Shown: piece by piece, positions 7,139 to 27,354 of the stretch | Numbering within the stretch: position 1 is the first letter of the stretch | Layout: each line of letters opens with the position of its first letter | Assembly: GCA_001791325.1 (NCBI GenBank) | Contig: MGEK01000039.1 | Location: forward strand, 1,175 to 65,174 | Length of the DNA stretch: 64,000 bases | Origin: Candidatus Uhrbacteria bacterium RIFCSPLOWO2_01_FULL_47_25 | Lineage (GTDB): Bacteria > Patescibacteriota > Patescibacteriia > GWA2-46-9 | Reading direction: 5' to 3' | Made by a program: the position numbers and the translations under genes | Notes under the pieces: generated by a model | Told to the model about the DNA's origin: nothing | Database searches by the model: none | Seen by the model: the letters and a program-made list of their open reading frames with translations, nothing else

Positions 7139-7140
7139 AC

Positions 7141-8458: not shown

Positions 8459-8468
8459 ATTGCTCCGG

Positions 8469-13802: not shown

Positions 13803-14854
13803 GTTATAAGACGATCAATCAGAAAAATAGCTAGTCCCAACATAACCATCACCCCGCTTATCACCCAAAAACGCATCACCACCTTAGGCTCCGGCCAACC
13901 GCTGGCTTCCAAATGATGATGAAGAGGGGCTGATAAAAATATCTTGCGCCCCAAAATTCTTTTAGCGCTGACTTGAAGAATCACAGACAGAGACTCAACA
14001 ACCAAAAGGAATCCAAAAATCGGCAAAAGCAAAGCAGTATTGGTGAGCATGGCCAATATCCCCAAAGTAACTCCTAGCGCCATGGCTCCGGTATCCCCCA
14101 TAAAAAAACGAGCCGGGTAAATATTAAACCAAAGAAAGGCTAAAAGGGAGCCGATAATTACCGCTGTTAAGGCCGCCAAATCAAAACGATGCAGAACAAA
14201 AGCAATAACGCTGTAAGCCCCCATAATAATCAAACTAACGCCGCCCGCTAAACCATCCAACCCGTCAATCAAATTGAGTGAATGGGCAGTTGAGATTATG
14301 ACCAGCAAAAAAAGCGGAATATACCACCAACCAATTATGATATCCCCAAATAATGGAACATGAATTGTATCCCAATCAAGTTTGAAATAGAACCACCACG
14401 CGCCAACGGCGGCAATGACCGCGTATAAAATCATCCTATGTCTTACTCTAAGGCCGCCGGTCTTGGCCCCTACTCCCCAAACATTCATCAAATCATCAAC
14501 CAGCCCAACAAGAGCGGCTGCCACCAGAGCGAAAAGTGGCAACCATGTCTCTGATCTAGATAAAAAATTCAATGTCCCAAAGATATTCGGTGCTAAATAA
14601 CCCAAAAACCAAAAGAACAAAGTTACTGATAATGTAGTTAACCATATCAACACCCCTCCCATGGTAGGAGTGCCACTTTTAGCGGCATGAAGAGTTGAAT
14701 ACACCGGTGTCTCTCCAGTATCGCGGATATTCTTGCCGAGGTTGTACTTATAAAGAAAAAAAGTAAGCACTGGAGTCCAAGCCATGGCCAGCGCAAACGC
14801 CAGAATGGCCAAAAAAAGCATTCGCAAAATTGCAAAAATAGCAACCGACTCCAT
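13799..14854 (-). CDS. mraY: phospho-N-acetylmuramoyl-pentapeptide transferase MraY
   Basis: 351-aa polytopic membrane protein with DDxxN-type motif (VDDLMNVWG) and the HHHLE-like segment typical of MraY. Confidence 0.9.
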   Translation of the reverse strand: MESVAIFAILRMLFLAILAFALAMAWTPVLTFFLYKYNLGKNIRDTGETPVYSTLHAAKSGTPTMGGVLIWLTTLSVTLFFWFLGYLAPNIFGTLNFLSRSETWLPLFALVAAALVGLVDDLMNVWGVGAKTGGLRVRHRMILYAVIAAVGAWWFYFKLDWDTIHVPLFGDIIIGWWYIPLFLLVIISTAHSLNLIDGLDGLAGGVSLIIMGAYSVIAFVLHRFDLAALTAVIIGSLLAFLWFNIYPARFFMGDTGAMALGVTLGILAMLTNTALLLPIFGFLLVVESLSVILQVSAKRILGRKIFLSAPLHHHLEASGWPEPKVVMRFWVISGVMVMLGLAIFLIDRLIT

Positions 14855-15220: not shown

Positions 15221-15407
15221 AAGTTATAGCCCCATCATAGCACAACCTACAATCAAGATGAATCCCGCGCCATGCTGGCCGGCAGGTAACGGATATACGC
15301 AACAATATCAACCTTCTATGTTCTCAACTCCCCACCAAGAATCAAAAAGCGCATTGTTATGCAACCAGTCGCGAATATCTTCCCAATATTGTGAAGCTCC
15401 ACGGCTT

Positions 15408-15512
15408 AACCCGCCTTGGGCGGATGGCCTCCACAGAGATTGGGGGTGGAGCGTCCGCCCGAGGCGGACAGGAAACCCCACACCGTCCGCCCTGGGTGGA
15501 CTGGTGCGTGGG
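15408..15512. ncRNA. GC-rich structured element, copy 2 (same core CAGGAAACCCCACACCGTCC as copy 1)
   Basis: Shares the ~20-nt core and flanks (GAGCGYC...YGGTGCGYG) with 5262-5396. The intervening hairpins differ but stay self-complementary (GTCCGCCCGAGGCGGAC; GTCCGCCCTGGGTGGAC). It overlaps the 3' half of ORF 15357..15704, which is therefore probably not a genuine full-length CDS. Confidence 0.3.
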
Positions 15513-15753
15513 CAATTCAGTAATGCTGCCTTTTTCTCGTGATTTTTCAATAATCTCTAAATCATCTCGAGCATATTTAGTTAGCTTGCGAAAAATTTTT
15601 TTATTACCCTTAATCTTTTCAAAAATTCCTCTAATTTGATTCACCCACTCGGGCAATCGCTCTCCGCTCGGCATTTCCCCTTCTGGCAATTTTCCGACAG
15701 ACATAAATCAATTACCCCGCCCCAAGGGGCAGGGAAAGAAATTTACATGCATA

Positions 15754-16014
15754 TCATGATTCAAGCGCGGCAATCAAACTTTTTGCGGTTTTGTGAGTAG
15801 TATAGTTACCTAAAGCATAATCAAGCCGCGCTTCATTGATGATTTCATCAAACGTTTCGGCTTCATTTACACGTCTGATGTCGTCTGTAGAAATCTCCAA
15901 TATAATCTTCTTTTCACGAGGATACCGAGAAAGATAGCGCAAAGCAGACAATGGTAAGTTTATCGTTGCCTCGTGGGTTCTTTTTGAATTAGCCTTACTT
16001 ATTTTGGTTCTCAT
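15754..16014 (-). CDS. hypothetical protein (terminal cassette-like ORF)
   Basis: 86-aa ORF at the distal end of the repeat-punctuated island; no family recognised. Confidence 0.35.
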   Translation of the reverse strand: MRTKISKANSKRTHEATINLPLSALRYLSRYPREKKIILEISTDDIRRVNEAETFDEIINEARLDYALGNYTTHKTAKSLIAALES

Positions 16015-16089
16015 ATCGAGAGTGCTTATAAAAATATCATGGCACGAAAGAAAAATTCAAGCAAATTTGGACGATGGTCTGTAAGAGCC

Positions 16090-16270
16090 AAGTCAGGTAC
16101 ACGCTGTTATGCGAAGTAGGTTACGGGATAAATTAATTAAAAATCGCCTAACGGCTCGCGGCTATGCGGAGTCCTGAAGGAATTGTATCACAATTCCTGA
16201 GGGATTACGTATACACACGCTGTTATATGATGTAATGAAAAATTCTTAATTCGCCGATAGGCGAATTATT
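16090..16270. repeat. attC-like modular palindromic repeat, copy A (short form)
   Basis: CACGCTGTTATGCGAAGTA ... CGCCTAACGGCTCGCGG-hairpin-CGTATACACACGCTGTTATATGATGTA, followed by the hairpin ATTCGCCGATAGGCGAAT. Confidence 0.6.
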
Positions 16271-17393
16271 TAATCGGGGCAATTTTTTTAAATTTTTTCA
16301 AAATTTCTCTTTCGAATTCGTCAATACCAAAAATCTTCTCAAATTCTTTTATAGTTTCTATGAGTTTCCCGTGCGGAAAAATGCCTTGCAGAAGTGGTTT
16401 ATTTTTAACTCGTGCTATCATTTCATCAGTTGGTTGCCAGTCGATTTTTGCCTTATCAAATAACTTTTTAAATTGATAACATTCTTGCTTCATTACCAAT
16501 AATTTTAACTTCTCAAAATTCATTTTGCGAATTTGTTTATAGATTTCGGTAGCTTTTATTGAAAATTCATCAACAAGGTTGTTTATTTCGTCTATTTTGA
16601 GAAATTCTCCATCGGCCCGTACAGCAAATTTTTTCATACCTGCCACAGGACTTTGTCCTTTAGAAATTGTATGACAGCCGACAAAGGATATTTTCCATAA
16701 AACATTTTCATAAATCGCGTAAATAACAACCTCTTTTACGTTTGCCAACAACTTTTCCGTCCATAATTCTTTCGGTCGGAGATTGGGGAAATGCCGGATT
16801 AATAGTACTTGATTAGATTTTAATGTGTATGGACCATAAACATCCCAACCGAGGTCAGTTACTACATCATTATAAAGCCCATGGACAAGCGAGCCAGCGG
16901 CCGTTATGAGCTGTCCAATTTTGCGAGCGCTTTGAATATCGGCTTTGTTCCATTTTATGTGAGATATGAACGTGCCAATTTCGGAGTTTGTATGACGTGG
17001 ATTCGATTTCAATGCGAAAGGATCGTCTGGACAACTTTCCTTGAGCATACGTGCGAAAAAATTTGCTACTGATTTATAATCCTTTTTATTCTCCGTTGGC
17101 TTAGCGTGGTAGGAAGGAATAAGTTTTATGAGAATTGCCCGCAGGTTAGAGGGTGGCGGGAGTATTCCTTTAATTTCACTAAAATGTTTTGATTCCAAAT
17201 CTAATTTTTTGATTGCATGCGCAATACTTGCTACCCATAAATCATACCAAAGAGGAAAAAAATGATAAAAATCAAGTGGTTGAAATCCCTCTAACACCTG
17301 CCCTTTAAAAACGTTTGAAGCGGATTTTGAAAATTCTTTAATCCAAGACATATACTTTTCCTTTTTGGCCGTCAACGCGGATGCGCATGCCAT
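16266..17393 (-). CDS. hypothetical protein (cassette ORF; 3' gene of a three-gene unit)
   Basis: 375 aa, no recognised family; its probable start (MSWIKEF) overlaps the upstream gene by a few nt. Confidence 0.45.
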   Translation of the reverse strand: MACASALTAKKEKYMSWIKEFSKSASNVFKGQVLEGFQPLDFYHFFPLWYDLWVASIAHAIKKLDLESKHFSEIKGILPPPSNLRAILIKLIPSYHAKPTENKKDYKSVANFFARMLKESCPDDPFALKSNPRHTNSEIGTFISHIKWNKADIQSARKIGQLITAAGSLVHGLYNDVVTDLGWDVYGPYTLKSNQVLLIRHFPNLRPKELWTEKLLANVKEVVIYAIYENVLWKISFVGCHTISKGQSPVAGMKKFAVRADGEFLKIDEINNLVDEFSIKATEIYKQIRKMNFEKLKLLVMKQECYQFKKLFDKAKIDWQPTDEMIARVKNKPLLQGIFPHGKLIETIKEFEKIFGIDEFEREILKKFKKIAPIK

Positions 17394-17667
17394 TTTTTAT
17401 CTTTTGGGTTGCTTCTTTGGTGTTGACAACGCAGGGAATACCCATCTCCCTGCTTAAAATAGCAGGATGTGAAGTGATGCCGCCAATATCCGTGATAATT
17501 GCCGCTGCCCTTACCATTGCGGTCACCATCGTCGGATCGGTTATCGTGGTTACTAAAATATTTCCCTCTTCAAATGAAGAAGGGTCGTCGCCAGAATAAA
17601 ATAATCTGGCGGTGCCTTCTATGTTTCCCGGGCTTGCGCCCATGCCTGTGAGTAATATTTTAGCCAT
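17338..17667 (-). CDS. stand-alone PEP-utilising enzyme mobile (swivelling phosphohistidine) domain protein
   Basis: GGITSHPAILSREMGIPCVV is the phosphohistidine swivel-domain signature of PEP synthase, PPDK and rifampin-phosphotransferase-type enzymes. Only 109 aa. Confidence 0.7.
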   Translation of the reverse strand: MAKILLTGMGASPGNIEGTARLFYSGDDPSSFEEGNILVTTITDPTMVTAMVRAAAIITDIGGITSHPAILSREMGIPCVVNTKEATQKIKNGMRIRVDGQKGKVYVLD

Positions 17668-17669
17668 AG

Positions 17670-18626
17670 TTATTGTAGTGAGTCGACTTTTTTAGGTTTT
17701 ATGTTGTTGGCTTTAATATACTCTTTTGCCAACTCAGTTAATGCGGGGATGTTCAGTTTGTATTCCTGTGTTTCTCCATTTTCACGTCGCAATATAATTG
17801 TAACTTGTTTTTCTCCTTGGTTATCGTTTTGTATCCGCAAATCCCAACTATCAAGTATTTTTAAACTCCCGCCAATTTCTTCCAAATTTTCAAAACCTAC
17901 TACGCTTTCTTTATTTTTTTCTCTTTCTATAGCATATTTCAGAAATGCTTCGGTTGATGTTTTGTGTCCCGAGCTAACCAGATTAATTGATTTACCGCCT
18001 GGCATATAATCTGGCAAATGGACAAGGCGATTAATCTTGAAAGCGACAGAAGCGGCTTGCTCCCGCGGACTCGGCGTTTCTTCATCTGGTCGCTTGTCGC
18101 CAAAAGAAAGATACCACTCTAAAGCTGGCTCTTCTGCATATTCTGCGGCTGCTTCCTGTTCATCGGGCGGTAGTTCATCAAATTTTTTTCCCGAATAATG
18201 CTCGTCGATGTATTGTTGTCTTTTTGGTAACATGATTGCATCGTACTGCTGCATAAATTTTTTGCTTGCGGCTAAGGCAGGCAGAGAAAAAAATGCCTGC
18301 GTAGTTTCTGACCTTTGTAAAATATTGGGGTTAACTTCTGCGGCTTGAAATACAGAAGTTAGTGTTTCTTTGGTTCTGTCTATTGCGGTAGCGTATGCCT
18401 TAGTAATTTTGCGACCAGCTAGTTGACTTTTTCCATAAGTTTCTGCGCGTTGTTTTCCTGTTTCTGAAATGCTTGACGTCGATAGTCCTTGAATTCCTTC
18501 CGCAAAGACTTGCCCAGACGCTTTTTGCGAATGGCGGACAAAAGTAAATCTTATTTCTGTATTATGCCCTCGTTCTTCTTTTAGTTCTTCAGGTTGTTCA
18601 ATTTGTGGTCTTCGTTCGTTAATCAT
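17670..18626 (-). CDS. hypothetical protein, possibly histidine-phosphatase (PGAM-like) superfamily
   Basis: The N-terminal RHSQ motif (FTFVRHSQKA...LSETGKQRAE) and a later SSGHKTSTEA segment resemble the RHG...H catalytic motifs of branch-1 histidine phosphatases; the similarity is weak. Confidence 0.4.
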   Translation of the reverse strand: MINERRPQIEQPEELKEERGHNTEIRFTFVRHSQKASGQVFAEGIQGLSTSSISETGKQRAETYGKSQLAGRKITKAYATAIDRTKETLTSVFQAAEVNPNILQRSETTQAFFSLPALAASKKFMQQYDAIMLPKRQQYIDEHYSGKKFDELPPDEQEAAAEYAEEPALEWYLSFGDKRPDEETPSPREQAASVAFKINRLVHLPDYMPGGKSINLVSSGHKTSTEAFLKYAIEREKNKESVVGFENLEEIGGSLKILDSWDLRIQNDNQGEKQVTIILRRENGETQEYKLNIPALTELAKEYIKANNIKPKKVDSLQ

Positions 18627-18659
18627 ATTGGTTGGTAAAAAATTTAAAAAAATTGCCCC

Positions 18660-19040
18660 GATTAATTTGCCCGATAGGGCAAAAAAAAATTTTCATTATT
18701 TCACATAACGGCTCGCGGCTATGCGGAGTCCTGAAGGAATTGTATCACAATTCCTGAGGGATTACGTATAGCCGCTGTTCGGCGATGTGCGCCGCGCGCA
18801 CGCCTGCCCGCCGAAGTATGGGGTGTTTGAATTCAGCATCTTAGTGAATAAGGAACGAAGGCGGGAGCCGAACAGCGGGAACCGCGAGCCGTTAGGCAAA
18901 ATGCGCGGCGCATTTTGCCTAACGTTCGCGTATATCTGATGTTTTGCGGAGCGTAGCGGAGCAAAATATGGGTGAGTATTTGGCGTTAGCCAAGCGCGAA
19001 CCAGATATACGCTGTTATATGATGTATGCTTTTCTTTTTG
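18660..19040. repeat. attC-like modular palindromic repeat, copy B (long form)
   Basis: TTGCCCGATAGGGCAA hairpin, then ACATAACGGCTCGCGG...GCTGTTCGGCGATGTGCGCCGCGCGCAC...GCCGAACAGCGGGAACCGCGAGCCGTTAGGCAAAATGCGCGGCGCATTTTGCCTAACGTTCGCGTATATCTGATGTTTTGCG...CAAAATATGGGTG...CCAGATATACGCTGTTATATGATGTA. Confidence 0.65.
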
Positions 19041-19145
19041 TCTCGCCTCAACGAGACCACTTTTCTATAATGAACAAATTTTATTTTTGTCTTGGCGTAG
19101 GGGCAGAGGGGCTGGGGGTGAATGCCACGAAGCCAAGACACCTTA

Positions 19146-20294
19146 TTATTCGTTGTCGGTGAATATATCAATGTAGTTCTTATACATATATGACTGCCTG
19201 TACTTCTTGCCCTTATCCTTTGGAATTAAAATACCCATTTTGATAAATCTATCAATAACTGTTTGTGCGCCAGCGCGAGTAAAGCCAGTCCATTTTTGAA
19301 TAACACTAACAGTTACAATGGGCTGCGCATATAATTTTGGTAACACCAAAGCTGCGCTTTCAGAAGCGCGTTTGCCAAGAGTTTGAATTTCGAGCAGGTC
19401 TTTCTCGCGCAAGATAGTGATTTTACCGACAGTATCTATTGCTTCGTTAGCAATTTCAATGACACCCTCAAGAAAGAAATCTATCCAATCCGATATGTTA
19501 CCATTATGGTAACTCAACAACTTTTCGTAATACAATTTTTGGTATTTTTTGAAAAAAGACGACAAAAACAAGACCGGCTTTTCCAAGTAGCCCTCTTTCC
19601 AAAGGTAAAAGGTAATCAACATTCTTCCGGTTCTGCCATTGCCATCCAAAAACGGGTGAATGGTTTCAAATTGAGCATGAATTAGTCCGGCTTTTATTAC
19701 GGTTGGTATTGCGTCGTCGGTATGAATAAACTTTTCCAAATCATTAAGCGCGCGATGCATTTCATCAACTGGCGGCGGAACAAAATTTGCGTTATCTGGG
19801 CGAGTACCGCCAATCCAATTTTGACTTTTACGGAATTCGCCCGGGTCGGAAAAATGTGTTGCGCGTGCTTTCTGCATAAGTTGCTTGTGCAGTTCACGAA
19901 TAAACCGGAGGACCATTGGAAAACCGTCTGTTCTCATTCTTTTTATTCCATAGTTGAGCGCCTTGATGTAGTGAAGAATGTCATCTACATCATCCGGTAT
20001 TTTCGTATCTATTTTTGCTTCCGCCGCGATTGCATCTATCATGGTCGCTCTCGTACCTTCAATTTGGCTGGAGGAAGCTGCGTCTTTTCGTAAATACATC
20101 AAAAGAAAAAAGTCAGCGTCCGGTAGTAATTTGGTAATGCCGTCCAATTTGCCAAGCAGGCGAGTGGCTTCATTGTTCTTTTTAAGGATATTTTGATCAA
20201 AACCAACCCCCTCCTTTGGTGGAAAGGGGTGCGGAATAAAAGCTTTAAATCCAGCAGGTTGCGCTTTGTATACGCCCATCTCAATGTTTTGCAT
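19146..20294 (-). CDS. Fic/DOC family protein (AMPylation-type Fic motif; class II with an N-terminal inhibitory motif)
   Basis: Canonical Fic motif IHPFLDGNGRTGR. An SxxxEG-type inhibitory motif (SSQIEG) lies N-terminal in the same chain. Confidence 0.85.
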   Translation of the reverse strand: MQNIEMGVYKAQPAGFKAFIPHPFPPKEGVGFDQNILKKNNEATRLLGKLDGITKLLPDADFFLLMYLRKDAASSSQIEGTRATMIDAIAAEAKIDTKIPDDVDDILHYIKALNYGIKRMRTDGFPMVLRFIRELHKQLMQKARATHFSDPGEFRKSQNWIGGTRPDNANFVPPPVDEMHRALNDLEKFIHTDDAIPTVIKAGLIHAQFETIHPFLDGNGRTGRMLITFYLWKEGYLEKPVLFLSSFFKKYQKLYYEKLLSYHNGNISDWIDFFLEGVIEIANEAIDTVGKITILREKDLLEIQTLGKRASESAALVLPKLYAQPIVTVSVIQKWTGFTRAGAQTVIDRFIKMGILIPKDKGKKYRQSYMYKNYIDIFTDNE

Positions 20295-20401
20295 AGTTTG
20301 TTTACATCTTTAGTTAATGTATACAAAGTATATCAGTTTGTATATTTTATGTCAAGTAAAGTTTACAAACTGCGAGGTGAATACCCCGAAGCCAAGACAC
20401 C

Positions 20402-21451
20402 TCATTTCGTTCTCTCAATAATTTTGACTATTCCATTATTAGCGTCTAATTCCACCAAATCGTTGTTTTGTAAAATTTTAGTGGCATTTTTTGTGCCAAC
20501 AATACAAGGAATATTTAGCTCTCTGCTGATTATAGCGGCGTGGCAGGCGATTCCGCCTTCGTTTGTTACTATACCCAAAACATTTTTCAAATAAGGCGTG
20601 AATTTTATGGAAGTCATCGGCGCCACCACTATTTTGTTGTCTAAATTATTCAGATCCGATTCTCTCAAGATCAGCCGAACTCGGCCTTTTATTAAACCCT
20701 TGTTGGCGACACTACCTTTAATAAAATCGGTTTGATTTTTTTCTTCTTTAATATTGCTTTTTAAAATTTGCTTGGCTTTTGCACCAGTTAAAATTTTTGT
20801 TTTACCGCCATTAACAGTTAAAAATAAAATAAGTTTTTTTCTTTCTCCTAAAATATTTTCTTTTATCTTTTTGTTATCTTTTAGCAAGTCAATTATTTCG
20901 TCTGGTAAGGCGTAAAATAATAGGTCGCTCTTAATTTTCTTTCTTTTTCCTATTTCTTGAAAAAAAAGTGGTAAAAAATCTTTCTGAATTTTTTCATAGT
21001 CAGCTATTCCTCTCGCTTCTCTTAATTTGTCTTTTATCGCCTGCGACAAATCATTCTCGTTTAATACCATGCCAAAATATTTTGGCAATGTAAAAAGAGG
21101 AAAATAATTTTGATAAATATTAACAAAATCAGTAAAAATTTTCAGCAGTTGTTTGTCTGTAAAATTATCTAATTTTTTACATTCTAAAAATTTTTTCAGC
21201 CTTTCGTTTTGCTTCTTCAGTTTGTCAAGTATTTTTTCAAAAATTTCAAGCTTCTTAGTTTTTAATTCATTCAGAAACTCATCATATTCGCTCTTTAAAC
21301 GCCATGAATGGACAATGCCATTTTCATGCATCATTAAAAAATTTTTCAGATTTTTTCCAATATTTTTTTTGTAATTCTTAAGATAGCCTATCATTATGCA
21401 ATAGGTTGTGAATAAATCGCATTCTCTCTCGGTAAATTTTGTCCATTCCAT
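20402..21451 (-). CDS. hypothetical protein with a C-terminal PEP-utilising enzyme mobile domain
   Basis: C-terminus NEGGIACHAAIISRELNIPCIVGTKNAT is the swivel-domain signature. The N-terminal ~240 aa is Lys/Asn-rich and unassigned. Confidence 0.6.
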   Translation of the reverse strand: MEWTKFTERECDLFTTYCIMIGYLKNYKKNIGKNLKNFLMMHENGIVHSWRLKSEYDEFLNELKTKKLEIFEKILDKLKKQNERLKKFLECKKLDNFTDKQLLKIFTDFVNIYQNYFPLFTLPKYFGMVLNENDLSQAIKDKLREARGIADYEKIQKDFLPLFFQEIGKRKKIKSDLLFYALPDEIIDLLKDNKKIKENILGERKKLILFLTVNGGKTKILTGAKAKQILKSNIKEEKNQTDFIKGSVANKGLIKGRVRLILRESDLNNLDNKIVVAPMTSIKFTPYLKNVLGIVTNEGGIACHAAIISRELNIPCIVGTKNATKILQNNDLVELDANNGIVKIIERTK

Positions 21452-21458
21452 AGGTTTG

Positions 21459-22268
21459 TTATAATTTAATTTTTTCTGTCCCGACTAGCTCTCTTTTTTT
21501 ATCAAAATGAAATTCCTCACAGAAATGTGGTACCTCATCAATTGAAAATTGACCTTGCTGTTTTTCATAGCTCATTTGGCCCAATGGGCCACTATGGCCA
21601 ACGGCAAACAAAATGATAGGCGACTGTCGCTGGTCGGATTGCGGTCTTTCAGACTTTGTAACAACGCTATGTACTAATTCCATAAACTGTTTATATCTTT
21701 CGGCCGCTTTTTTCGGCAGTTTTGTTTTTTCAAATTTAACATTGGGTTCATTCATTGCGTGAAAATATTGTAAAAGCGCTTCCATTTCGTTTATGGCATT
21801 TGGGCCCTTTGTCATTTCTGCGTACGGCTTCCAAGTGTCAGGGTGCGCGTCGGCTAGTAATTTAACTAGTTCTGTACTGTCAATTTCCAACATATCAATT
21901 CGTTTTGCATTTTTCTTGTCTTGAGATTCGCCTTGTGCTTCCAGTTGAGCCAAGCGAGCCGTGGCAAGATGTCTGGTCAGTTGCGTGCGGTCTTTTCCGC
22001 TATCCATCACAACTAAAATACTCTCTTTGGGCAATTGTGCGTAAAGATTGTCAGCTAACCGTAAACTGCGGATAATACCGTCTAATTTTAGTGGTGCTTC
22101 TCCCAATTTAACAACTTCCGGAAAATCGTTTTCCAAAACAGATATAACCAAGTTAAATTCTTTCGCCGTCAATTTTGATTTCAATTCCTCCGGATTCAAT
22201 TTCCACGTTCCTTTGTCGGCATGACGAGTGATTATAGATTCTTGATTTTCAAGAAATTTTTCAGTCAT
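21459..22268 (-). CDS. hypothetical protein (co-oriented immediately upstream of the swivel-domain protein)
   Basis: 269 aa; no confident family. Confidence 0.45.
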   Translation of the reverse strand: MTEKFLENQESIITRHADKGTWKLNPEELKSKLTAKEFNLVISVLENDFPEVVKLGEAPLKLDGIIRSLRLADNLYAQLPKESILVVMDSGKDRTQLTRHLATARLAQLEAQGESQDKKNAKRIDMLEIDSTELVKLLADAHPDTWKPYAEMTKGPNAINEMEALLQYFHAMNEPNVKFEKTKLPKKAAERYKQFMELVHSVVTKSERPQSDQRQSPIILFAVGHSGPLGQMSYEKQQGQFSIDEVPHFCEEFHFDKKRELVGTEKIKL

Positions 22269-22384
22269 ATTTTTGAGTTAGTAATATTTATAAAATCGTT
22301 TTCTGAGCGACGAGAGGAGCGAAGAAAACACCATATACCCCCCTCTTAAAAAATAAAAATAAAATTTATTCATTATAGAAAAGT

Positions 22385-22580
22385 GTTAGGCGTTAGCCGT
22401 AAAAAGAAAAGCATATTTCGTATAACGTTTAAGTGTATGCGAAGTTGAAAAACCCCGCTGCCTTGATTTAATTGTATCAAAAAAAGCGGGGTTTTTCAAC
22501 TTGGGTGAAAGACATGGCACAATTCTTTAGTTACATTAAAAAGTGTGCCAGTCCTAAACCGCATACACTTTGTTAGGCGA
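22385..22580. repeat. attC-like repeat, diverged copy H
   Basis: GTGTTAGGCGTTAGCC ... CGTATAACGTT-GTGTATGCGAAGT-[16-bp perfect stem AGTTGAAAAACCCCGC/GCGGGGTTTTTCAACT]-TGGGTGAAAG ... CCGCATACACTTTGTTAGGCGATGTA. Confidence 0.5.
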
Positions 22581-22626
22581 TGTAAAAACAAGTTCTTTCC
22601 TTAATTCGGGAATAAGGAAAATTATA

Positions 22627-22884
22627 TTAAGCGCCCTTCTCAGCAAGTCTTTTTATTACTGCTTTGTCAATAACATCCCTCACTACGGAGTGTATTTTTT
22701 TCCCGCCATCTTCAGTGAACAATGCTTCGACTTTGGGGAACCATGGCTTGTCTTCGCACATTTTTCTTGCATCACCAGACTCCCATCCCAAAAAATTATT
22801 AAATGCCGCTAGCTCACCATCAGTTAATTGATTAAGAGCCATGTTCGCAGCAGCCTCCAACTGCGGTGGTTGTTCTCTGTTCAT
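22627..22884 (-). CDS. hypothetical protein (cassette ORF)
   Basis: 85-aa ORF bounded by attC-like repeats on both sides. Confidence 0.4.
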   Translation of the reverse strand: MNREQPPQLEAAANMALNQLTDGELAAFNNFLGWESGDARKMCEDKPWFPKVEALFTEDGGKKIHSVVRDVIDKAVIKRLAEKGA

Positions 22885-22974
22885 AGGTTTGTATGATTAA
22901 AATTTATAAGTGTCTTTTGTATAAATAGCTTAATATAATTTTCGTTAAAATTCAATAGAACTTGTTTTTATTTC

Positions 22975-23330
22975 ACCTAAGGTCCGCGGCATATCCCTGC
23001 AGTGACGCGAGCCCCGCCCTACGGGGCGAGTGGCATTGCGGATATGCCGCTGTTATGCGATGTGCGCCGCGCGCACGCCTGCCCGCCGAAGTATGGGGTG
23101 TTTGAATTCAGCATCTTAGTGAATAAGGAACGAAGGCGGGAGCAGAACAGCGGGAACCGCGGACCTTATGCAAAATGCACGGCGCATTTTGCATAACGTT
23201 TCGGCATATCTGATGTTTGCCGTAGCGTAGCGAAGGCAAATATGGGTGAATAAATTTTGCATTCCTTAGCATTATTATAGCGCAAAATTTATGAACCAGA
23301 TATGCCGTGTTATGCGATGCTGCAAAAATA
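22975..23330. repeat. attC-like modular palindromic repeat, copy C (long form)
   Basis: AAGGTCCGCGG...GCTGTTATGCGATGTGCGCCGCGCGCAC...CAGAACAGCGGGAACCGCGGACCTTATGCAAAATGCACGGCGCATTTTGCATAACGTTTCGGCATATCTGATGTTTGCCG...CAAATATGGGTG...CCAGATATGCCGTGTTATGCGATGC. The outer stem is the covariant GGTCCGCGG/CCGCGGACC. Confidence 0.65.
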
Positions 23331-23336
23331 TTTTAT

Positions 23337-24110
23337 TTATTTGTAAAGATAACCTACTCCTAGAATCATTGATTGTCCAAATTTTTTCTTATCTTTATTA
23401 TCGACAAACGTTAGCAACGGTACCCCCTTCTTTTTACACTCCTCATGTTGATAAATGTTTTGACCCAAAATTATTTTTTTCCACGCTTTATTTACTTCCT
23501 CGTATGCGATAATGTCGTGAAATGCGGCCAGCCCATTTTTATCCAAAAAATAATTATAGTTTTTCCAATCATTTAATACCGACTTACATGTATGATCTCC
23601 ATCAATAAATAAAAAATCCACCTTCCTATTGCCCAAATACTCTTTTAGGTCTTCTCGTGCTTTTTTAGAGGTAGACTTCCTTCTAATATGCAAATAGTTA
23701 TTTTTTAGATAAAAATGCCTAAGTTTATTAATCGTGTCTTCATATGTATAGAACTGTTTTTCATATTTAGATCCCGTTATATAAGGATCAATAGTGATGA
23801 AGGTTGTTCCCGAATTACCAAGAGCTGCAGATAATAGGTAAATAAAGCCACCACGTGCCGATCCTATTTCTAAAATAATTTTGGGTCTTCTTCTTCTTAT
23901 TTTTTCTAAGGTGTGAACAATCTCAAGCGGGGTTTGCCCCACGTCTGGACACTCAAAATTTGGACAATCAATTCTTAGTTTTTCTGTAATGTATTTTATT
24001 CTTTTGTTCATAATTAAATATTTTTGCAGTTTCACATAACGTCCGGGTATCATGCGCTCGTACTCGTATGGCGCATATACCCTGTTAGGCGATGTAAATA
24101 TTTTGCTCAA
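23337..24110 (-). CDS. class I SAM-dependent methyltransferase (TylF/MycF-like Methyltransf_24-type family)
   Basis: Motif I ILEIGSARGG and LFIDGDHT. The track ORF begins with TTG and overlaps attC-like copy D, so the true start is probably an internal ATG (MIPGRY or MNKRIK). Confidence 0.6.
   Translation of the reverse strand: MSKIFTSPNRVYAPYEYERMIPGRYVKLQKYLIMNKRIKYITEKLRIDCPNFECPDVGQTPLEIVHTLEKIRRRRPKIILEIGSARGGFIYLLSAALGNSGTTFITIDPYITGSKYEKQFYTYEDTINKLRHFYLKNNYLHIRRKSTSKKAREDLKEYLGNRKVDFLFIDGDHTCKSVLNDWKNYNYFLDKNGLAAFHDIIAYEEVNKAWKKIILGQNIYQHEECKKKGVPLLTFVDNKDKKKFGQSMILGVGYLYK
24030..24100. repeat. attC-like repeat, copy D (minimal ~70-bp form)
   Basis: CACATAACG-TCCGGGTATCATGCGC-loop-GCGCATATACCC-TGTTAGGCGATGTA. 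Confidence 0.55.
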
Positions 24111-24177
24111 TGAGATAAAAAATGAGAGTTGGGCGAGAGGGTTGGGTTTCCTCTCGCGCCCGTGAGCTGATTGTACA

Positions 24178-24411
24178 CTACGCAGATTGATCGAGGCGAC
24201 GCAAGCTCTTCACGGTAACGCCATGGGAGACCGTTTCGCCATCCCAGACGATCGGTACCTCCCAAGGATCGTAGAGACATTTCGGGCCTCCGAATGCTGC
24301 TTGCACCGTCCCGATTTTCTTCGCGTCGACGTGCTGAACTCGAAGCCCCGCAGGAAAATCATCGTCGATTTGTGCCATGAGTGACTCCTTACTGTCTGTG
24401 GTGGTGCCCAA
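24178..24411 (-). CDS. hypothetical protein (visibly GC-richer cassette ORF)
   Basis: 77-aa ORF whose composition differs from the AT-rich neighbours; flanked by attC-like repeats. Confidence 0.35.
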   Translation of the reverse strand: MGTTTDSKESLMAQIDDDFPAGLRVQHVDAKKIGTVQAAFGGPKCLYDPWEVPIVWDGETVSHGVTVKSLRRLDQSA

Positions 24412-24439
24412 CTCTCATTTTTTATCAATATCAATGGAC

Positions 24440-24745
24440 AAAATATTTATTTCGCCTAACGGCTCGCGGCTATGCGGAGTCCTGAAGGAATTGTATCACA
24501 ATTCCTGAAGGATTACGTATAGCCGCTGTTAGGCGATGTGCGCCGCGCGCACAAGCATAACAGCGGGAACCGCGAGCCGTTATGCAAAATGCGCGGCGCA
24601 TTTTGCCTAACGTTCGCGCATATCTGATGTTTGCGGCTGGTATAATATAACGCCGATAGGCGTTTTACCAGCCGCAAATATGGGTGGAGGCTTGGCGTCA
24701 GCCAAGCCGTAGCCAGATATGCGCTGTTATATGATGTAACAATAC
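24440..24745. repeat. attC-like modular palindromic repeat, copy E (long form)
   Basis: CGCCTAACGGCTCGCGG-hairpin-GCTGTTAGGCGATGTGCGCCGCGCGCAC-AAGCATAACAGCGGGAACCGCGAGCCGTTATGCAAAATGCGCGGCGCATTTTGCCTAACGTTCGCGCATATCTGATGTTTGCGGCTGG...CCAGCCGCAAATATGGGTG...CCAGATATGCGCTGTTATATGATGTA. Confidence 0.65.
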
Positions 24746-24793
24746 ATTCTTAACTCCGACCGAAGAGAGGAGTTATGGAAATCAGGGTAATTT

Positions 24794-25288
24794 TTAATCA
24801 AAAAATTCGCAACGTTTATTGTACAGTAGCTCATTAACCTCAACCATAATTGCTTTTAACTCCGCAAAAAGTGCAAGGATGGGATGACCGTCGGAAACCT
24901 CGTAATGAGGGTAACCACTGGCAGGTGTTATTAGTGTGAGGCTTTTTGCGGCTTCCTGTATTTGTTTGTGAAGAGCATCGGCCCTGTCAGCTAGTTGATT
25001 GTATCTTTCTCCTTTTTCTTTTTGCTCTGCCTCCAAAGCGTCTATATCAACCTTTGGAATGAGGCGAGCTATTTTAACTTGCTCCACCTCCGCATATGTG
25101 TGCTTGCCTCTAACTTCTTTTAATTCTTCTGGTGTTGTGTTTTGATGACCACGCCTTCTGCTAGGTTCAAGCGCATAAATTAGATCACCTGCTGTCCCGA
25201 TCCAGTCATTCCAAAGGTGGCCTGAAAATTGTTTCCGTTTGAATGGTTCGTAATATTCTGGTGGCGGTTTAAGGTCTTCTGTAGACAT
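24794..25288 (-). CDS. hypothetical protein (cassette ORF)
   Basis: 164 aa, no family recognised; bounded by repeats. Confidence 0.45.
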   Translation of the reverse strand: MSTEDLKPPPEYYEPFKRKQFSGHLWNDWIGTAGDLIYALEPSRRRGHQNTTPEELKEVRGKHTYAEVEQVKIARLIPKVDIDALEAEQKEKGERYNQLADRADALHKQIQEAAKSLTLITPASGYPHYEVSDGHPILALFAELKAIMVEVNELLYNKRCEFFD

Positions 25289-25354
25289 ATTTTTTGATTA
25301 CAATAAAATTGCCCTGATTTCCAGCCGCCGCGTCAGCGGCGGAAAGAATGTATT

Positions 25355-25460
25355 GTTATTTCATATAACGTTCGCATATATCTGATGTTGCGACTGAAAG
25401 GAGCGATATGGACAAAACGAAGCGGAGCCAGATATACGCTTGTTGTGCGATGTTAGCGAG
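25355..25460. repeat. attC-like repeat, copy F (partial: 3' modules only)
   Basis: CATATAACGTTCGCATATATCTGATGTTGCG...GAGCCAGATATACGCTTGTTGTGCGATGTTAG. Confidence 0.5.
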
Positions 25461-25463
25461 CAT

Positions 25464-25745
25464 TCATCGATAGACGCACGGATAGCACCGACTCGTTTCC
25501 GTATTGCAGGAGTGCGACACTTTTTCTCCCGGAATGAATTTTGCCCCCGTAAAAGAGGCACACCAGCAGTCATCATCTGATTGACACACCGTGTTTTCAT
25601 TAGTTTCTGAAATTTCCACATTCACTGCCTCGGGCTGAGGCTGTACGAATTGAAATCTAAGAAAAAGTGCCGCTCCGATTGCTACCACAATCAGAATCAC
25701 TATTCCTAACGCCGTTTTAATTATCATAGTGTTTATATAATGCAA
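25464..25745 (-). CDS. hypothetical small Cys-rich membrane-anchored/secreted protein (cassette ORF)
   Basis: N-terminal hydrophobic anchor followed by a Cys-rich C-terminal domain (CQSDDDCWC...CNTETSRCYPC). Confidence 0.4.
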   Translation of the reverse strand: MHYINTMIIKTALGIVILIVVAIGAALFLRFQFVQPQPEAVNVEISETNENTVCQSDDDCWCASFTGAKFIPGEKVSHSCNTETSRCYPCVYR

Positions 25746-25784
25746 AACCTTTTTAAATCAGCAGAACAAGCTCGCCAATTTCGT

Positions 25785-26075
25785 ACAAGGTCCGCGGCAT
25801 ATCCTTGCAGTGACGCGAGAGCGCGTACGCTCGAGCGGCATTGCGGATATGCCGCTGTTATGCGATGTGCGCCGCGCGCACGAGCAGAACAGCGGGAACC
25901 GCGGACCTTATGCAAAATGCGCGGCGCATTTTGCATAACGTATCGGGATAAGCGAAGTTTTTACGAAGTGAAACGAAGTAAAAATTTGGGTGAAGGGCAA
26001 ATGCAACTCATTAATGTAAGTAATAAATCGCATTTGCCCTGAACCGCTTATCCCGTGTTAGGCGATGAATTTTTG
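25785..26075. repeat. attC-like modular palindromic repeat, copy G
   Basis: CAAGGTCCGCGG...GCTGTTATGCGATGTGCGCCGCGCGCACGAGCAGAACAGCGGGAACCGCGGACCTTATGCAAAATGCGCGGCGCATTTTGCATAACGTATCGGGATAAGCG...CGCTTATCCCGTGTTAGGCGATGAA. Confidence 0.6.
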
Positions 26076-26081
26076 AAACTA

Positions 26082-26390
26082 TTAGACGGGTAATTTTTTA
26101 ATATCGTTGTGCGGATGTAGATTGATACGAATTGCATCAACTATATCAATTTTACTCTCGTCGATACCACCGACATCTGGAAGGCTGCTTAATTCATGTT
26201 CTATATCTGTTTGTGTCAATTCGTCCTTTTCTAATTTTTTTAAAAGACGCTTTTTTGCTTGTTCCGCCACGCCCAAAGTAATGGATAGTCTATGCTCTAA
26301 TTTTGGAGGCGGAAGTTCTCTCAATATTTTGTCTAAAATTGGCGTGGCGGAAGCAGCCTGCTCCCTTCCTTCGTGTCCCATATTTTCCAT
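26082..26390 (-). CDS. hypothetical protein (integrase-proximal cassette ORF)
   Basis: 102 aa; first minus-strand ORF next to the divergently transcribed recombinase. Confidence 0.4.
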   Translation of the reverse strand: MENMGHEGREQAASATPILDKILRELPPPKLEHRLSITLGVAEQAKKRLLKKLEKDELTQTDIEHELSSLPDVGGIDESKIDIVDAIRINLHPHNDIKKLPV

Positions 26391-26538
26391 ATGATTTATG
26401 TTAGAAATTAGTTAATAGTTTCAAAAATTTTTCGCCTAACTCGTTTATATGCGACGTGTTTTCGTATATGATACACAATATTGCTTAATGAACGAATATC
26501 GTTTATAATGACAATATGTCATTATAATATCACTAAAA
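26391..26538. promoter_or_regulatory. divergent intergenic region between first cassette and recombinase (candidate attI / cassette promoter region)
   Basis: AT-rich. Contains GCCTAACTCG and CGTGTT boxes resembling the repeat cores, plus -10-like TATAAT/TATGAT hexamers on both strands. Confidence 0.3.
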
Positions 26539-27354
26539 ATGATAGATGCATATTTAAAAAGAACGGAAGACGAATTGAGATTGCGCAATTACAGCCCCAA
26601 GACTATAAAAAGCTACCTAGCCTGCCTCGCTGGTTACCTGCGCGCGAAGAAGAGCAATTTAGAATCCATTGACACTGATTTTATCAAGCGGTTTTTGTTG
26701 AGTAAAAAGGACGCGGGAAAATCCCCACGAACGATCAATCAGAGCTTGCAAGCAATTAATTTCTTCTGTCGCAATGTTTTAAAAAGTCATTGCGATATAG
26801 ATATTAAATTCGCCAAAACCCCTAGCAAGTTGCCGATAGTATTATCGCGCGATGAGATAAAGTTGATCATTGATTCCATTAGCAACGAGAAACATTGTTT
26901 AATGATCGCACTGGCTTATGCTGGTGGATTGCGGGTAAGCGAGATCATCAATCTAAGAATTAAAGATTTGAATATAAACGAGCTGACGATCCACATTAAA
27001 GGCGCCAAGGGGAATCGCGACCGTCTTACTATATTATCTGATAAGTATAAAAATAGGCTTGAAAAAATCATTATCGGCGGGAACCCCAATGATTATGTTT
27101 TCGCGAGCGAACGCGGCGGTAAACTAACAGAGCGCACGGCCCAAAAGATTTTTGAAAATGCGCGGCGAAAAGCGAATATAACCAAAGACGCGACGTTTCA
27201 CTCCTTGCGGCACAGTTTTGCCACCCATTTATTGGAGAACGGCGTGGATGTGCGCTATGTGCAGGAATTATTGGGGCATCAAAATATCAGAACGACCCAG
27301 CTTTACACGCAAGTCACGAATCCACAGCTTAAAAATATCAAGAGTCCGCTATAA
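26539..27354 (+). CDS. tyrosine site-specific recombinase (Xer-like; no IntI-specific insertion)
   Basis: Catalytic residues are present: R in LAYAGGLRVSE, K in KGAKGNRDR, HxxR in HSLRHSFATHLL, H in LLGH, and the Y nucleophile in TTQLYTQV. The spacing between the catalytic K and the HxxR box is ~64 aa, so the ~35-aa IntI-specific insertion is absent. Confidence 0.85.
   Translation: MIDAYLKRTEDELRLRNYSPKTIKSYLACLAGYLRAKKSNLESIDTDFIKRFLLSKKDAGKSPRTINQSLQAINFFCRNVLKSHCDIDIKFAKTPSKLPIVLSRDEIKLIIDSISNEKHCLMIALAYAGGLRVSEIINLRIKDLNINELTIHIKGAKGNRDRLTILSDKYKNRLEKIIIGGNPNDYVFASERGGKLTERTAQKIFENARRKANITKDATFHSLRHSFATHLLENGVDVRYVQELLGHQNIRTTQLYTQVTNPQLKNIKSPL

Follow-up and report, generated by a model that had tools for sequence, protein, structure and literature searches.

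A probable integron-like gene-exchange platform beside a minimal Xer-like recombinase in Candidatus Uhrbacteria and other bacteria of the Candidate Phyla Radiation

Introduction

Sedentary chromosomal integrons, such as the Vibrio superintegron, combine a recombinase gene that diverges from an adjacent primary site (attI) with a long array of mostly co-oriented open reading frames (ORFs). Their cassettes are bounded by imperfect palindromes (attC) that are conserved in structure rather than in sequence and carry boxes ending in AAC and beginning with GTT; each cassette has terminal boxes that match one another, the content varies by strain, cassettes move between genomes, and the cargo includes anti-phage defense genes. 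Here we describe a locus with each of these traits in a 64,000-nt stretch (the window, meaning the whole stretch analyzed) of Candidatus Uhrbacteria bacterium RIFCSPLOWO2_01_FULL_47_25 (contig MGEK01000039.1, positions 1,175 to 65,174), a member of the Patescibacteria, or Candidate Phyla Radiation (CPR). In this window, a 10.5-kb gene-capture array lies next to a gene for a compact tyrosine recombinase. An additional domain around patch III, the I2 helix, is specific to integron integrases (IntI) and defines them (PMC9668308; likewise PMC7790495), and the latter source describes integron integrases as having moved from double- to single-strand recombination by gaining this helix.

Other Xer-related systems also bear comparison. 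Like XerA/dif, XerH/difH and XerS/difSL, the locus pairs a simple tyrosine recombinase of about 270 aa with a palindromic core of ~11-7-11 nt beside the gene. The difSL and difH sites likewise adjoin xerS and xerH. The CTX phage, an example of the integrative mobile elements exploiting Xer (IMEX), integrates by single strand exchange through a hairpin that single-stranded DNA folds into and that is mismatched in its central region. The pdif modules of Acinetobacter plasmids are discrete gene modules with Xer-type sites in alternating orientation that are found in different contexts; pdif sites are plain 28-bp duplexes on plasmids, served by chromosomal XerC/XerD, with no linked recombinase, primary site or structured palindromes.

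An earlier sequence-only reading of the window had put forward the idea that a minimal Xer-like recombinase serves an array of integron-like cassettes, and that the system may be an undescribed one. The proposal is supported by covarying sites, CPR-wide linkage and junctions at the boxes, and a full-text literature search, covering among others papers on IntegronFinder 2.0, attC taxonomy, archaeal integrons and Patescibacteria horizontal gene transfer, returned no description of integron-like arrays in CPR. We conclude that the locus is probably a chromosomal integron-like platform for gene capture and exchange, specific to CPR/Patescibacteria, the cargo of which is accessory and largely defense-like. 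The platform is undescribed and recurs in dozens of CPR lineages; it works like an integron yet does not qualify as one by the features that define integrons.

Results

Oriented palindromic elements mark the recombinase locus across CPR lineages

The intact recombinase gene (26539..27354, + strand, 271 aa) is transcribed away from the array, which lies upstream of it, in keeping with the divergent tyrosine recombinase that the first reading had placed beside the array. The array contains imperfect palindromes, here termed V elements, which open with a box ending in TAAC and close with a box beginning with GTTA; the boxes form the inner ends of 11–12-nt Xer-type arms. Regular-expression scans for the boxes proved too noisy in AT-rich genomes, and we used instead a stem-aware scan and a covariance model, R1, built from 26 elements, 21 from 17 other genomes and five from the window. 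R1 matches the 64-kb window 13 times, always on the + strand and within 16005–26069, with no match elsewhere in it. The extended box GTTAKRYGAWG has 11 copies, every one on the + strand between 16106 and 26067, compared with 0.41 occurrences expected by shuffling, and 0 of 100 shuffles reached 11. Both counts bear out the earlier observation of one modular repeat, in at least eight copies, in the gaps between ORFs. Repeat finding returned families of 27–116 nt along with many inverted pairs.

The same arrangement was found in other lineages. Across 64 other loci (833 kb, both strands), all 79 R1 matches with E<=0.01 lie on the strand of the recombinase gene and upstream of it, as do 7 of 7 matches (E<=0.05) in a Moranbacteria locus outside the training set, where they are interleaved with nine − strand ORFs over 8.5 kb. 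At the thresholds used, this placement holds for all 86 matches in the 44 other loci with a match. The independent stem scan gave 48 matches upstream on the + strand versus 3, 7 and 7 in three control compartments. In many lineages, V elements thus share one orientation and are restricted to the recombinase locus. The neighboring housekeeping genes differ among CPR lineages. In a GTDB scan, many contigs ended 100–300 nt upstream of the recombinase gene, as expected because repeat arrays break assemblies.

Arrays outside the window also carry genes of other kinds. The Pacebacteria array L001 (L numbers denote individual loci) harbors an IS200/IS605-type Y1 transposase gene at 6547–7218, and Bro-N or KilA-N genes recur in the arrays of at least five unrelated CPR genomes (L005, at 7904–8734 and 13871–14716; L042, L044, L045, L058; L103, at 6221–7057).

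V elements covary and are predicted to fold better on one strand

On the + strand, a typical V starts with ATTTCnnnTAAC, three to five unpaired bases, an 11-bp stem (15–18 bp in the 81–86-nt type 2), A(A/T)GTTT and a hairpin, h1, and continues with AAA(T/A)(T/A)TGGGTGA, a second hairpin, h2, GA(A/G)CC, the second half of the stem, a single unpaired T and GTTAnnnGATGTA. The interior comprises an asymmetric internal loop, an 11–18-bp stem and usually two further hairpins, which yield a three-way junction. In our alignment of V elements, A1, 95.4% of cells are paired; this falls to 77.1% on shuffling, with none of 500 shuffles as high as the observed figure, and to 33–48% with the partners slid, the pairing of the long main stem being partly by construction because this stem served to pick the elements; 128 cells are changed on both sides versus 43 after shuffling. 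The h1 closing stem, the GG/CC pairs and the h2 stem, none of which was used for selection, covary as well: columns 30/90, for example, are UA in 13 sequences and AU in 12. These observations show that V structure is under selection.

Two G-T pairs are conserved in V and become C-A mismatches on the opposite strand. In DNA folding, the + strand was more stable than the − strand in 5 of 5 elements, with z from −3.2 to −10.7 except for one weak element, and V is accordingly predicted to fold better on the + strand, the one that bears TAAC. In the stem scan, all 48 elements have an internal loop of 4–5 x 1 nt, the longer side of which belongs to the 5' arm on the strand that folds better; the mirrored-offset geometry was matched only three times.

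Judged by the dimensions of attC (57–141 nt, RYYYAAC / GTTRRRY), V elements measure 57–159 nt from box to box in the window, their AAC and GTT boxes are invariant and their covariation is strong. The likeness of the terminal boxes to attC core sites, drawn in the first reading, is seen in the AAC and GTT triplets; the inner boxes are not of the GTTRRRY-type L box. The canonical attC layout claimed for the simplest copies did not survive: unlike attC, V has 11–12-nt Xer-type arms, a three-way junction and the 4–5 x 1 loop with its longer side on the opposite arm, and where extrahelical bases in L'' had been anticipated on folding, it is this loop that lies between the R and L stems. In a class 1 integron, R1 found no match even at E<=10 and without filters.

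Copies of the motif GGGTGAAT / AAATATGGGTGA lie immediately 3' of ORF stops and in the single-stranded joint of V; they include 19117–19147 and 20376–20406 in the window, positions inside V such as 24676–24688, and 8900–8945 in L003, and the motif is also present in L041, L042, L051 and L052. In L003, an ORF lies within h2 of a V. Searched with Rfam, the window contains no family at gathering thresholds, and 15–27.4 kb at E<=1 gave one chance-level small RNA match.

Array content varies by strain and modules have moved between genomes, the boxes being the breakpoints

At least 24 contigs, from different samples, encode the exact recombinase protein; the PilB-side flank is the same in all of them, and their arrays are of three types. 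The first is that of the window (L082, L083, L089, L090); the second (L084/L086) has DHFR, YdjC, asparaginase and HxlR genes in place of everything left of 24726; and the third (L085) has a 570-aa fn3/phosphatase-like protein left of 25857. Identity with the window is 99.3–100% up to the breakpoints, which are GCGCT|GTTATAT, GCCGCT|GTTATGC and, between L084 and L086, TAAC|GTCAGG. In L086, identity begins exactly at GTTATAT (24726); L084, masked by a run of N up to 24744, does not resolve this breakpoint. Cassette presence or absence between strains had been named beforehand as the decisive test, and it is seen here, in three arrays with an identical recombinase and junctions at the boxes. The expected position of these junctions, at the GTT of the R' box, is right for GTTATAT and GTTATGC but not complete, TAAC| being used too.

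Modules are also shared by distant genomes. L047 and L050, whose recombinases are 61% identical and which have no other detectable DNA similarity, share a 1,326-bp module that is 81% identical and carries a 345-aa ORF. By eye, we take this ORF to resemble MccF/LD-carboxypeptidase. Homology begins right after TAAC and stops at ...ATATAAC, such that TAAC| bounds both sides. The module is followed in L047 by attI (TCGTT...), the junction TAAC|TCGTT marking the end of homology, and in L050 by the interior of another V and then by about three more modules. In four further locus pairs, the left homology boundary lies at or within a few bases of AAC. Models placing boundaries at the TAAC box only, or at the GTT box only, are each contradicted by one comparison set, and therefore both boxes are breakpoints. 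Over 86 V elements, the two boxes of the same V agree at 1.63 of 4 variable positions, versus 3.06 of 4 for box pairs across intervals (23 of 50 perfect). Because box pairs match across modules, not palindromes, the boxes belong to modules, as in integron cassettes. Strains thus differ in the modules that they carry, modules also pass between distant genomes, and in both cases the breakpoints lie at the boxes.

A candidate primary site lies between the array and the recombinase gene

An attI-like, dif-like region (26427..26538, + strand) separates the array from the recombinase gene. Its left arm plus box, ATTTTTCGCCTAAC, has its last base at 26440, and crossover would occur after or within the AAC at 26438–26440. 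There follow the spacer TCGTTT, the right arm ATATGCGACGTG (26447–26458), an inverted arm TCGTATATGAT (26462–26472), a weaker direct arm repeat near 26487–26499, and TATAAT boxes at 26504–26509 and 26523–26528. The sequence conserved upstream of the recombinase gene is ATTTCnnnTAAC|TCGTTwTTATrCGAAGTGTTTTCGTATA, followed by a further direct arm copy (TATATTATGCGAA) and TATAAT; its core is a left arm ATTTCnnnTAA, a spacer of ~7 nt and a right arm TTATrCGAAGT, that is, a dif-type 11-7-11 layout with extra arm copies on the gene side. The attI1 site likewise has extra arm copies on the gene side. A strict pattern detects the layout 60–179 nt upstream of the recombinase in 42 of 57 loci, always on the strand of the gene, and most of the other CPR loci show variants of it, so that nearly all CPR loci examined have the site, about 100 nt before the gene; the sequence is absent from five distant non-CPR homolog loci. 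The box ends of V are the same arms as those of attI, and the inner stem of V resembles the attI right arm, e.g. ATATGCGAAGTT. On these sequence features, the region appears to be the primary recombination site, beside the recombinase gene and at the head of the array.

The recombinase is as close to XerA as to integron integrases

The recombinase retains all catalytic motifs (GLR132, K154/K157, H221xxR224, H247, Y256; RKHRHY residues intact) and matches the Pfam domains Phage_int_SAM_4 and Phage_integrase, its core-binding and catalytic domains being the only ones. Among NCBIfam models, XerA_Arch ranks first (216.4 bits, cut-off 220) and the integron integrase model TIGR02249 second (206.7 bits in two stretches, cut-off 265); PRK15417 scores 117.5 against a cut-off of 435. 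In the PDB, the corresponding values are 142 and 138 bits for XerA, 137 for Vibrio IntI4 and 90 for E. coli XerD. The IntI4 alignment is split, with query residues 183–194 opposite IntI4 187–240, and BLASTP against the class 1 integron IntI1 (30% identity, common C-terminal ...SPL) shows gaps opposite IntI1 ~194–250; the IntI-defining insertion is therefore absent from this protein of 271 aa, compared with 320–337 aa for IntI4 and IntI1. The recombinase thus appears as close to IntI as to archaeal XerA, and related to IntI, with which it shares N- and C-terminal features including the ...SPL end, but not an IntI: unlike integron integrases, it lacks the insertion with the I2 helix and falls below the cut-offs of their models. 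The description as minimal and Xer-like given in the first reading fits these results.

More than 7,600 database proteins match the recombinase at E<=1e-20, and the clade to which it belongs is CPR-wide. The best 120 of these are 266–298 aa long, nearly all 270–273, and 69–87% identical, and the informatively named ones among them belong to Pacebacteria, Moranbacteria, Wolfebacteria, Magasanikbacteria and the Patescibacteria group. The identical protein is annotated in four metagenome-recovered Candidatus Uhrbacteria genomes. Viral contigs contained no close relative, in a search by patterns from one sequence and of limited reach. The 'Cand' subgroup of Smyshlyaev et al. (2021, PMC8138268), Xer-related simple tyrosine recombinases of candidate phyla that may replace Xer, is probably the same protein clade; that paper is a protein classification only, with no sites, arrays or cassettes.

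A copy 66% identical to the recombinase lies at 9656–10810 of L012 (MCBF01000001.1, 1.39 Mb, labeled Candidatus Altiarchaeales archaeon IMC4), with the same upstream attI motif and one weak V match; this is either a cross-domain transfer or a chimeric or misbinned contig. CPR-type recombinases further occur in metagenome-assembled genomes labeled Gammaproteobacteria, Bdellovibrionales and Actinomycetota (L007, L011, L015, L017, L020, L022, L025, L033, L046 and others), mostly on short contigs, which is probably binning contamination.

Organization of the array in the window

The array is flanked on the left by MraY, FtsW, MurG and a Mur ligase and on the right by PilB, PilC, PilM, PilN and PilO. 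Its 13 plausible ORFs (15754–26390) are all on the − strand, confirming the block of co-oriented ORFs recognized earlier between cell-wall genes and a pilus operon. They are distributed over 9 gene-bearing modules, so that the 'ten or more short ORF units' of the first reading were correctly seen as cassette units and miscounted; the 'AT-rich block' applies to 16–24 kb (GC 0.35–0.41) and not to 24–26 kb (0.46–0.48), the flanks being at ~0.43–0.48. The cargo is heterogeneous, with a Fic protein, a methyltransferase, two phosphoenolpyruvate (PEP)-utilizer swivel proteins, a His-phosphatase-like protein, a Cys-rich 93-aa protein and several ORFs with no family match. Family searches (Pfam, PADLOC) agree with the Fic, swivel-domain, Cys-rich and unmatched ORFs named from the sequence, but not with a 'TylF-like' methyltransferase, for which no TylF-family match was reported, the best Pfam families being Methyltransf_24 and CmcI.

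Four long forms, at 18697–19026, 22969–23321, 24448–24738 and 25777–26069, correspond to the nested forms of ~330 bp noted at the outset. Each is composed of a type-2 V, a short hairpin, a mini palindrome of 29–31 nt and an AAAATG...CATTTT hairpin, together termed X, and then a type-1 V. Within the window, X is a combinatorial mosaic of two palindrome (V) families and two inner-segment lengths (repeat families D1–D4). ORF-less X also recurs within other arrays, for example in L003 (7717–7918, 8500–8700 and 9700–9896), L042 has five type-2 V copies, and X abuts attI directly in at least nine genomes. Both B-family type-2 palindromes in the window have AAG (22979–22981, 25787–25789) where AAC is otherwise invariant, and may be inactivated crossover points.

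We describe the array from attI outward, with all V and X elements on the + strand and all modules on the − strand. Module U1 (26057..26440) adjoins attI here and in every retrieved contig of the Uhrbacteria species; it contains an ORF of 102 aa with no family match (26082–26390), its boxes GTTAGGC / GCCTAAC match at 7/7 positions, and its module-specific inverted ends of 31 nt are 90% complementary. Next is V1 (25927..26069; type 1, three-way junction), with boxes GCATAAC (25933–25939) and GTTAGGC (26057–26063), an R1 score of 98 bits (E=2e-20) and a fold of −29.4 kcal/mol on the + strand versus −26.1 on the − strand (z=−6.8). V1 is preceded by the ORF-less X copy 4 (25777..25939; R1 26.5 bits, E=9e-4; repeat families D1, D3, D7 and D15), which comprises a type-2 palindrome with boxes GTACAAG (25783–25789) and GTTATGC (25857–25863), a short hairpin, a 29-nt mini palindrome from GCAGAAC (25885–25891) to CTTATGC (25907–25913) and the hairpin AAAATGCGC..GCGCATTTT, closing in GCATAAC at 25939.

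Module U4 (25442..25789), which is missing from the strain variant L085, encodes the Cys-rich 93-aa protein, with one hydrophobic helix (25464–25745). It is bordered by V4 (25357..25454; short type 1; boxes ATATAAC 25363–25369 and GTTGTGC 25442–25448; R1 61.9 bits, E=5e-12), which folds weakly alone (z=−0.6). Module U5 (24726..25369), the last one common to the window and strains L084/L086, has a 164-aa ORF with no family match (24794–25288), boxes GTTATAT / ATATAAC matching at 7/7 and inverted ends of 33 nt (85%). The adjoining V5 (24599..24738; type 1; boxes GCCTAAC 24605–24611 and GTTATAT 24726–24732; R1 89 bits; fold −42.4 kcal/mol, z=−8.5) contains the strain breakpoint T|GTTATAT (24726). 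X copy 3, also ORF-less (24448..24611; R1 39.7 bits; D1, D2), joins an A-family type-2 palindrome (24454–24534), a short hairpin, a mini palindrome (24555–24585) and a hairpin extending to GCCTAAC at 24611; it folds at −32.2 kcal/mol on the + strand versus −25.6 on the − strand (z=−10.7).

Module U8 (24084..24460) has a 77-aa ORF (24178–24411) and inverted ends that include 21 nt at 100%; V8 (24028..24096), the shortest simple form at 57 nt from box to box, has boxes ACATAAC (24034–24040) and GTTAGGC (24084–24090), scores 38 bits with R1 (E=2e-6) and folds with z=−3.2. The methyltransferase is carried by module U9 (23309..24040; ORF 23337–24011 with an ATG start; Pfam Methyltransf_24, 1e-13); a 257-aa form with a TTG start would overrun the box. 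V9 (23185..23321; type 1; boxes GCATAAC 23191–23197 and GTTATGC 23309–23315) scores 112 bits (E=1e-23), and its V family is also present in L013, L041, L042 and L044. X copy 2 (22969..23197; ORF-less; R1 28 bits) has a B-family type-2 palindrome, the one with AAG replacing AAC at 22979–22981, a 95-nt inner segment and a mini palindrome (23142–23171). Repeat family D4 links X copies 2 and 1, 23046–23161 being 97% identical to 18771–18886. Module U12 (22572..22981; 85-aa ORF at 22627–22884; inverted ends found) is bounded by V12 (22414..22584; a type-1 variant of 159 nt from box to box; boxes GTATAAC 22420–22426 and GTTAGGC 22572–22578), detected by R1 (78.5 bits) and by the stem scan.

The two largest modules have three genes each. 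U13 (19014..22426), with inverted ends of ~130 nt, encodes a SoFic-type Fic protein (19146–20294; PADLOC SoFic, 363 bits), a 349-aa protein with a PEP-utilizer swivel domain (20402–21451; Pfam) and a 269-aa protein with no family match (21459–22268). These ~130-nt ends (19014–19147, 22293–22447) are conserved in L053 (250–480, 4233–4380), where they enclose CBASS (cyclic oligonucleotide-based antiphage signaling system; cyclase, 305 bits, and a 2TM effector), a type II methyltransferase and a putative restriction enzyme. As judged from sequence, one module 'chassis' appears to carry differing defense cargo, SoFic in one case and CBASS plus type II restriction-modification in the other. X copy 1 and the type-1 site V13 together occupy 18697..19026 (R1 37.5 and 104.7 bits; D1, D2, D4, D11), with the type-2 palindrome at 18703–18783, the mini palindrome at 18867–18897, the hairpin to 18923 and V13 at 18917–19020. 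U16 (16222..18709), whose ends of 29 nt are 100% complementary, encodes a 375-aa protein of no named family (16266–17393), a 109-aa swivel-domain protein (17338–17667) and a 318-aa His-phosphatase-like protein (17670–18626). Both three-gene modules (16266–18626, 19146–22268) thus have a PEP-utilizer swivel-domain protein, accompanied in U16 by the His-phosphatase-like protein and, at the corresponding position of U13, by the unmatched 269-aa ORF; the swivel-domain pair might be an unrecognized defense or phosphotransfer system. PADLOC found no match in these modules apart from SoFic.

The distal array end (16005..16234; R1 19.3 and 20.5 bits, E=0.04 and 0.02) is degenerate, with the 3' half of a truncated type-1 site (box GTTATGC, 16106–16112) and a degenerate type-2 site (16146–16228). 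Left of it lies the outermost small ORF (15754..16014, 86 aa), found in all left-flank contigs long enough to reach this position; it may be the oldest module or already outside the array. Private terminal inverted repeats of 24–36 nt including the boxes are present in 7 of 8 gene-bearing modules, with ~130 nt in U13, and would lengthen the V hairpin only upon circularization of a module.

No tRNA genes were found in the window. Promoter and terminator scans gave counts at background level, from which no statement on a Pc-like promoter follows. Outside the array, 15380–15520 is GC-rich and strongly self-complementary, with a direct repeat CGTCCGCCC.GGGYGGAC at 15452–15472 and 15484–15504; implausible ORFs overlap it on both strands, Rfam has no match even at E<=1, and it may be an unannotated structured RNA. 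A 1302-aa ORF at 43550–47458 has a central 3 kb with GC 0.56–0.57, compared with ~0.45 in the rest of the window.

Discussion

Several features set this locus apart from integrons: breakpoints fall at both boxes of a V, the inverted repeats at module ends are private to each module, there is a recurrent composite without ORFs, the hosts are CPR bacteria, and R1 does not recognize class 1 attC. For the integron-like platform, we propose a mechanism in which the recombinase would bind a folded V, on single-stranded or cruciform DNA, at its outer arms, which are paired, and at its inner stem. The folded + strand would offer two duplex arm sites with a mismatched central loop between them, a hairpin mimic of the attI core, and one strand would be exchanged at TAA|C with attI or with another V. 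Replication would then resolve the junction, as in attC x attI and CTX-phage/Xer reactions. Either near-symmetric arm could start the exchange, and breakpoints would arise at either box because one recombinase serves both arms. A circular module would have a junction such as ...TTTTTCGCCTAAC joined to GTATCGGGATAAGCG. The spacers of attI, of both V ends and of different V elements share no usable homology, and a two-step duplex exchange is therefore unlikely; single-strand exchange on a folded strand would fit better than full duplex exchange. A folded hairpin and single strand exchange would be the likeness to CTX phage/Xer; unlike IMEX such as this phage, the modules are neither phages nor plasmids, and one site architecture is found across lineages. 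A dual role of the recombinase, at dif and on the platform, is possible.

An alternative that we consider unlikely is that the recombinase is the CPR chromosome-dimer resolvase and the adjoining palindrome its dif, beside which IMEX-like hitch-hikers have accumulated as the array. XerA proteins are the best structural relatives and XerA_Arch the top NCBIfam model, 'Cand' recombinases have been suggested as Xer stand-ins (PMC8138268), an 11-7-11 core site lies beside the gene, the 69–87% identity of the recombinase spans CPR classes, and some loci have merely one to three sites. However, GC skew has the same sign on either side in the window (−0.13, −0.09) and in at least 9 of 18 other two-flank loci, with a clean reversal in L001 alone and a left value near zero in most of the remaining loci. 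Most loci are therefore not at the terminus, as indicated indirectly by locus flanks rather than by a complete replicon, which weakens the case for a classical dif site. Moreover, the neighboring genes vary by lineage, V elements share one covarying architecture across lineages, unlike the att sites of unrelated elements, and none of the modules brings its own genes for replication or transfer. Unlike single-recombinase Xer systems, the locus thus lies away from the GC-skew switch and has up to 13 structured sites and 10 kb of modules beside the core site.

Rather improbable, in our assessment, is exchange at duplex sites in the manner of Acinetobacter pdif modules, with each V end a complete arm-spacer-arm site and folding incidental. 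Both V ends can indeed be read as arm-spacer-arm (ATTACGTATA-GCCGCTG-TTAGGCGATGT in a type-2 V, for instance), either box can be a breakpoint, ORFs can lie in intervals of both kinds, as the ORF inside a V of L003 shows, and the recombinase has no counterpart of the domain that IntI uses on single-stranded sites. Yet the spacers are unequal (8 versus 6 nt) and differ between V ends, between V elements and from attI, which leaves no overlap homology. The stems of 11–18 bp, the two inner hairpins and the fixed 4–5 x 1 loop, conserved or covarying, would be superfluous for a duplex mechanism, and the conserved G-T pairs favor one strand. Unequal spacers, covarying hairpins and a linked recombinase gene all distinguish the locus from pdif.

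It is highly improbable that this is an ordinary integron, with IntI and canonical attC within reach of existing tools and surveys. The divergent recombinase, adjacent site, co-oriented ORFs and imperfect palindromes with AAC/GTT boxes would fit one, as would the 207 bits with TIGR02249 and the ...SPL terminus common to IntI1 and IntI4, but the IntI4 and IntI1 alignments lack the IntI-specific insertion, TIGR02249 and PRK15417 stay below their cut-offs, R1 is silent on a class 1 integron, and CPR goes unmentioned in the integron literature searched. Repeats unrelated to the recombinase, whether palindromes of the repetitive extragenic or miniature inverted-repeat transposable element type, terminators, structured RNA genes or an inversion shufflon, can be all but dismissed despite their strong structure, conserved single-stranded motifs such as AAATATGGGTGA and inverted boxes flanking every module, given that the elements are restricted, in the 44 other loci with a match, to the strand of the recombinase gene and to the region upstream of it, have no Rfam match, fold best on the strand antisense to the window ORFs, and coincide with background-level promoter and terminator scans, while the ORFs are complete genes rather than alternative gene ends. 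A shufflon in particular was rejected, as strains show no inverted segments and all alignments are co-linear.

Several observations weigh against an integron-like platform. Position alone ties the recombinase to V, and the main-stem pairing in the V alignment is partly built in by selection. The recombinase lacks the insertion of ~40 aa, the I2 helix, with which integron integrases read folded attC; the asymmetry of V is on the arm opposite to the extrahelical bases of canonical attC; and both boxes of a V serve as breakpoints where crossover in canonical attC is limited to one point, which keeps a double-strand, pdif-like mechanism conceivable. Some arrays (L001, L003) have ORFs in both orientations. 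In the Uhrbacteria species, variation affects the distal modules, those near attI being constant, and the predicted 'empty' junction, X abutting attI, was not found in Joint Genome Institute (JGI) metagenome contigs, and a further scan for attI retrieved a single contig, in which the first module was the usual one. Six contigs of a Wolfebacteria species with an identical recombinase have identical arrays, differing solely by small deletions within repeats in L004 that are possibly assembly artifacts, and ten contigs of a Moranbacteria species with an identical recombinase have the same array, as far as called-gene maps show.

On a broader scale, the locus could represent a CPR-wide analog of integrons, in which a recombinase intermediate between Xer and IntI and without the I2 helix shuffles box-delimited, mostly defense modules via folded-DNA sites, either as an ancestor of IntI integrons or as an independent invention, and as a main route of gene exchange; we regard the arguments for and against this wider view as evenly balanced. 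A close IntI relative without the I2 helix beside structured, strand-biased cassette boundaries is a natural test of the need for this helix and of the pre-integron state. If the wider view is true, cassette recombination at structured sites can do without the domain to which the origin of integrons is ascribed. Integron surveys in which an integrase call depends on the IntI-specific domain cannot call such loci complete integrons, because the recombinase lacks it, and a whole radiation may have been scored as integron-free. The compact recombinase (271 aa) and its well-defined sites of ~60–130 nt are a candidate tool, and the platform explains a recurrent assembly break in metagenome-recovered CPR genomes. 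For small-genome epibiotic bacteria, it is a defined mechanism to swap defense systems (SoFic, CBASS, restriction-modification) and other accessory genes. If the wider view is true, genes would be exchanged by a principal route of this kind in a group that accounts for a large part of the diversity of bacteria.

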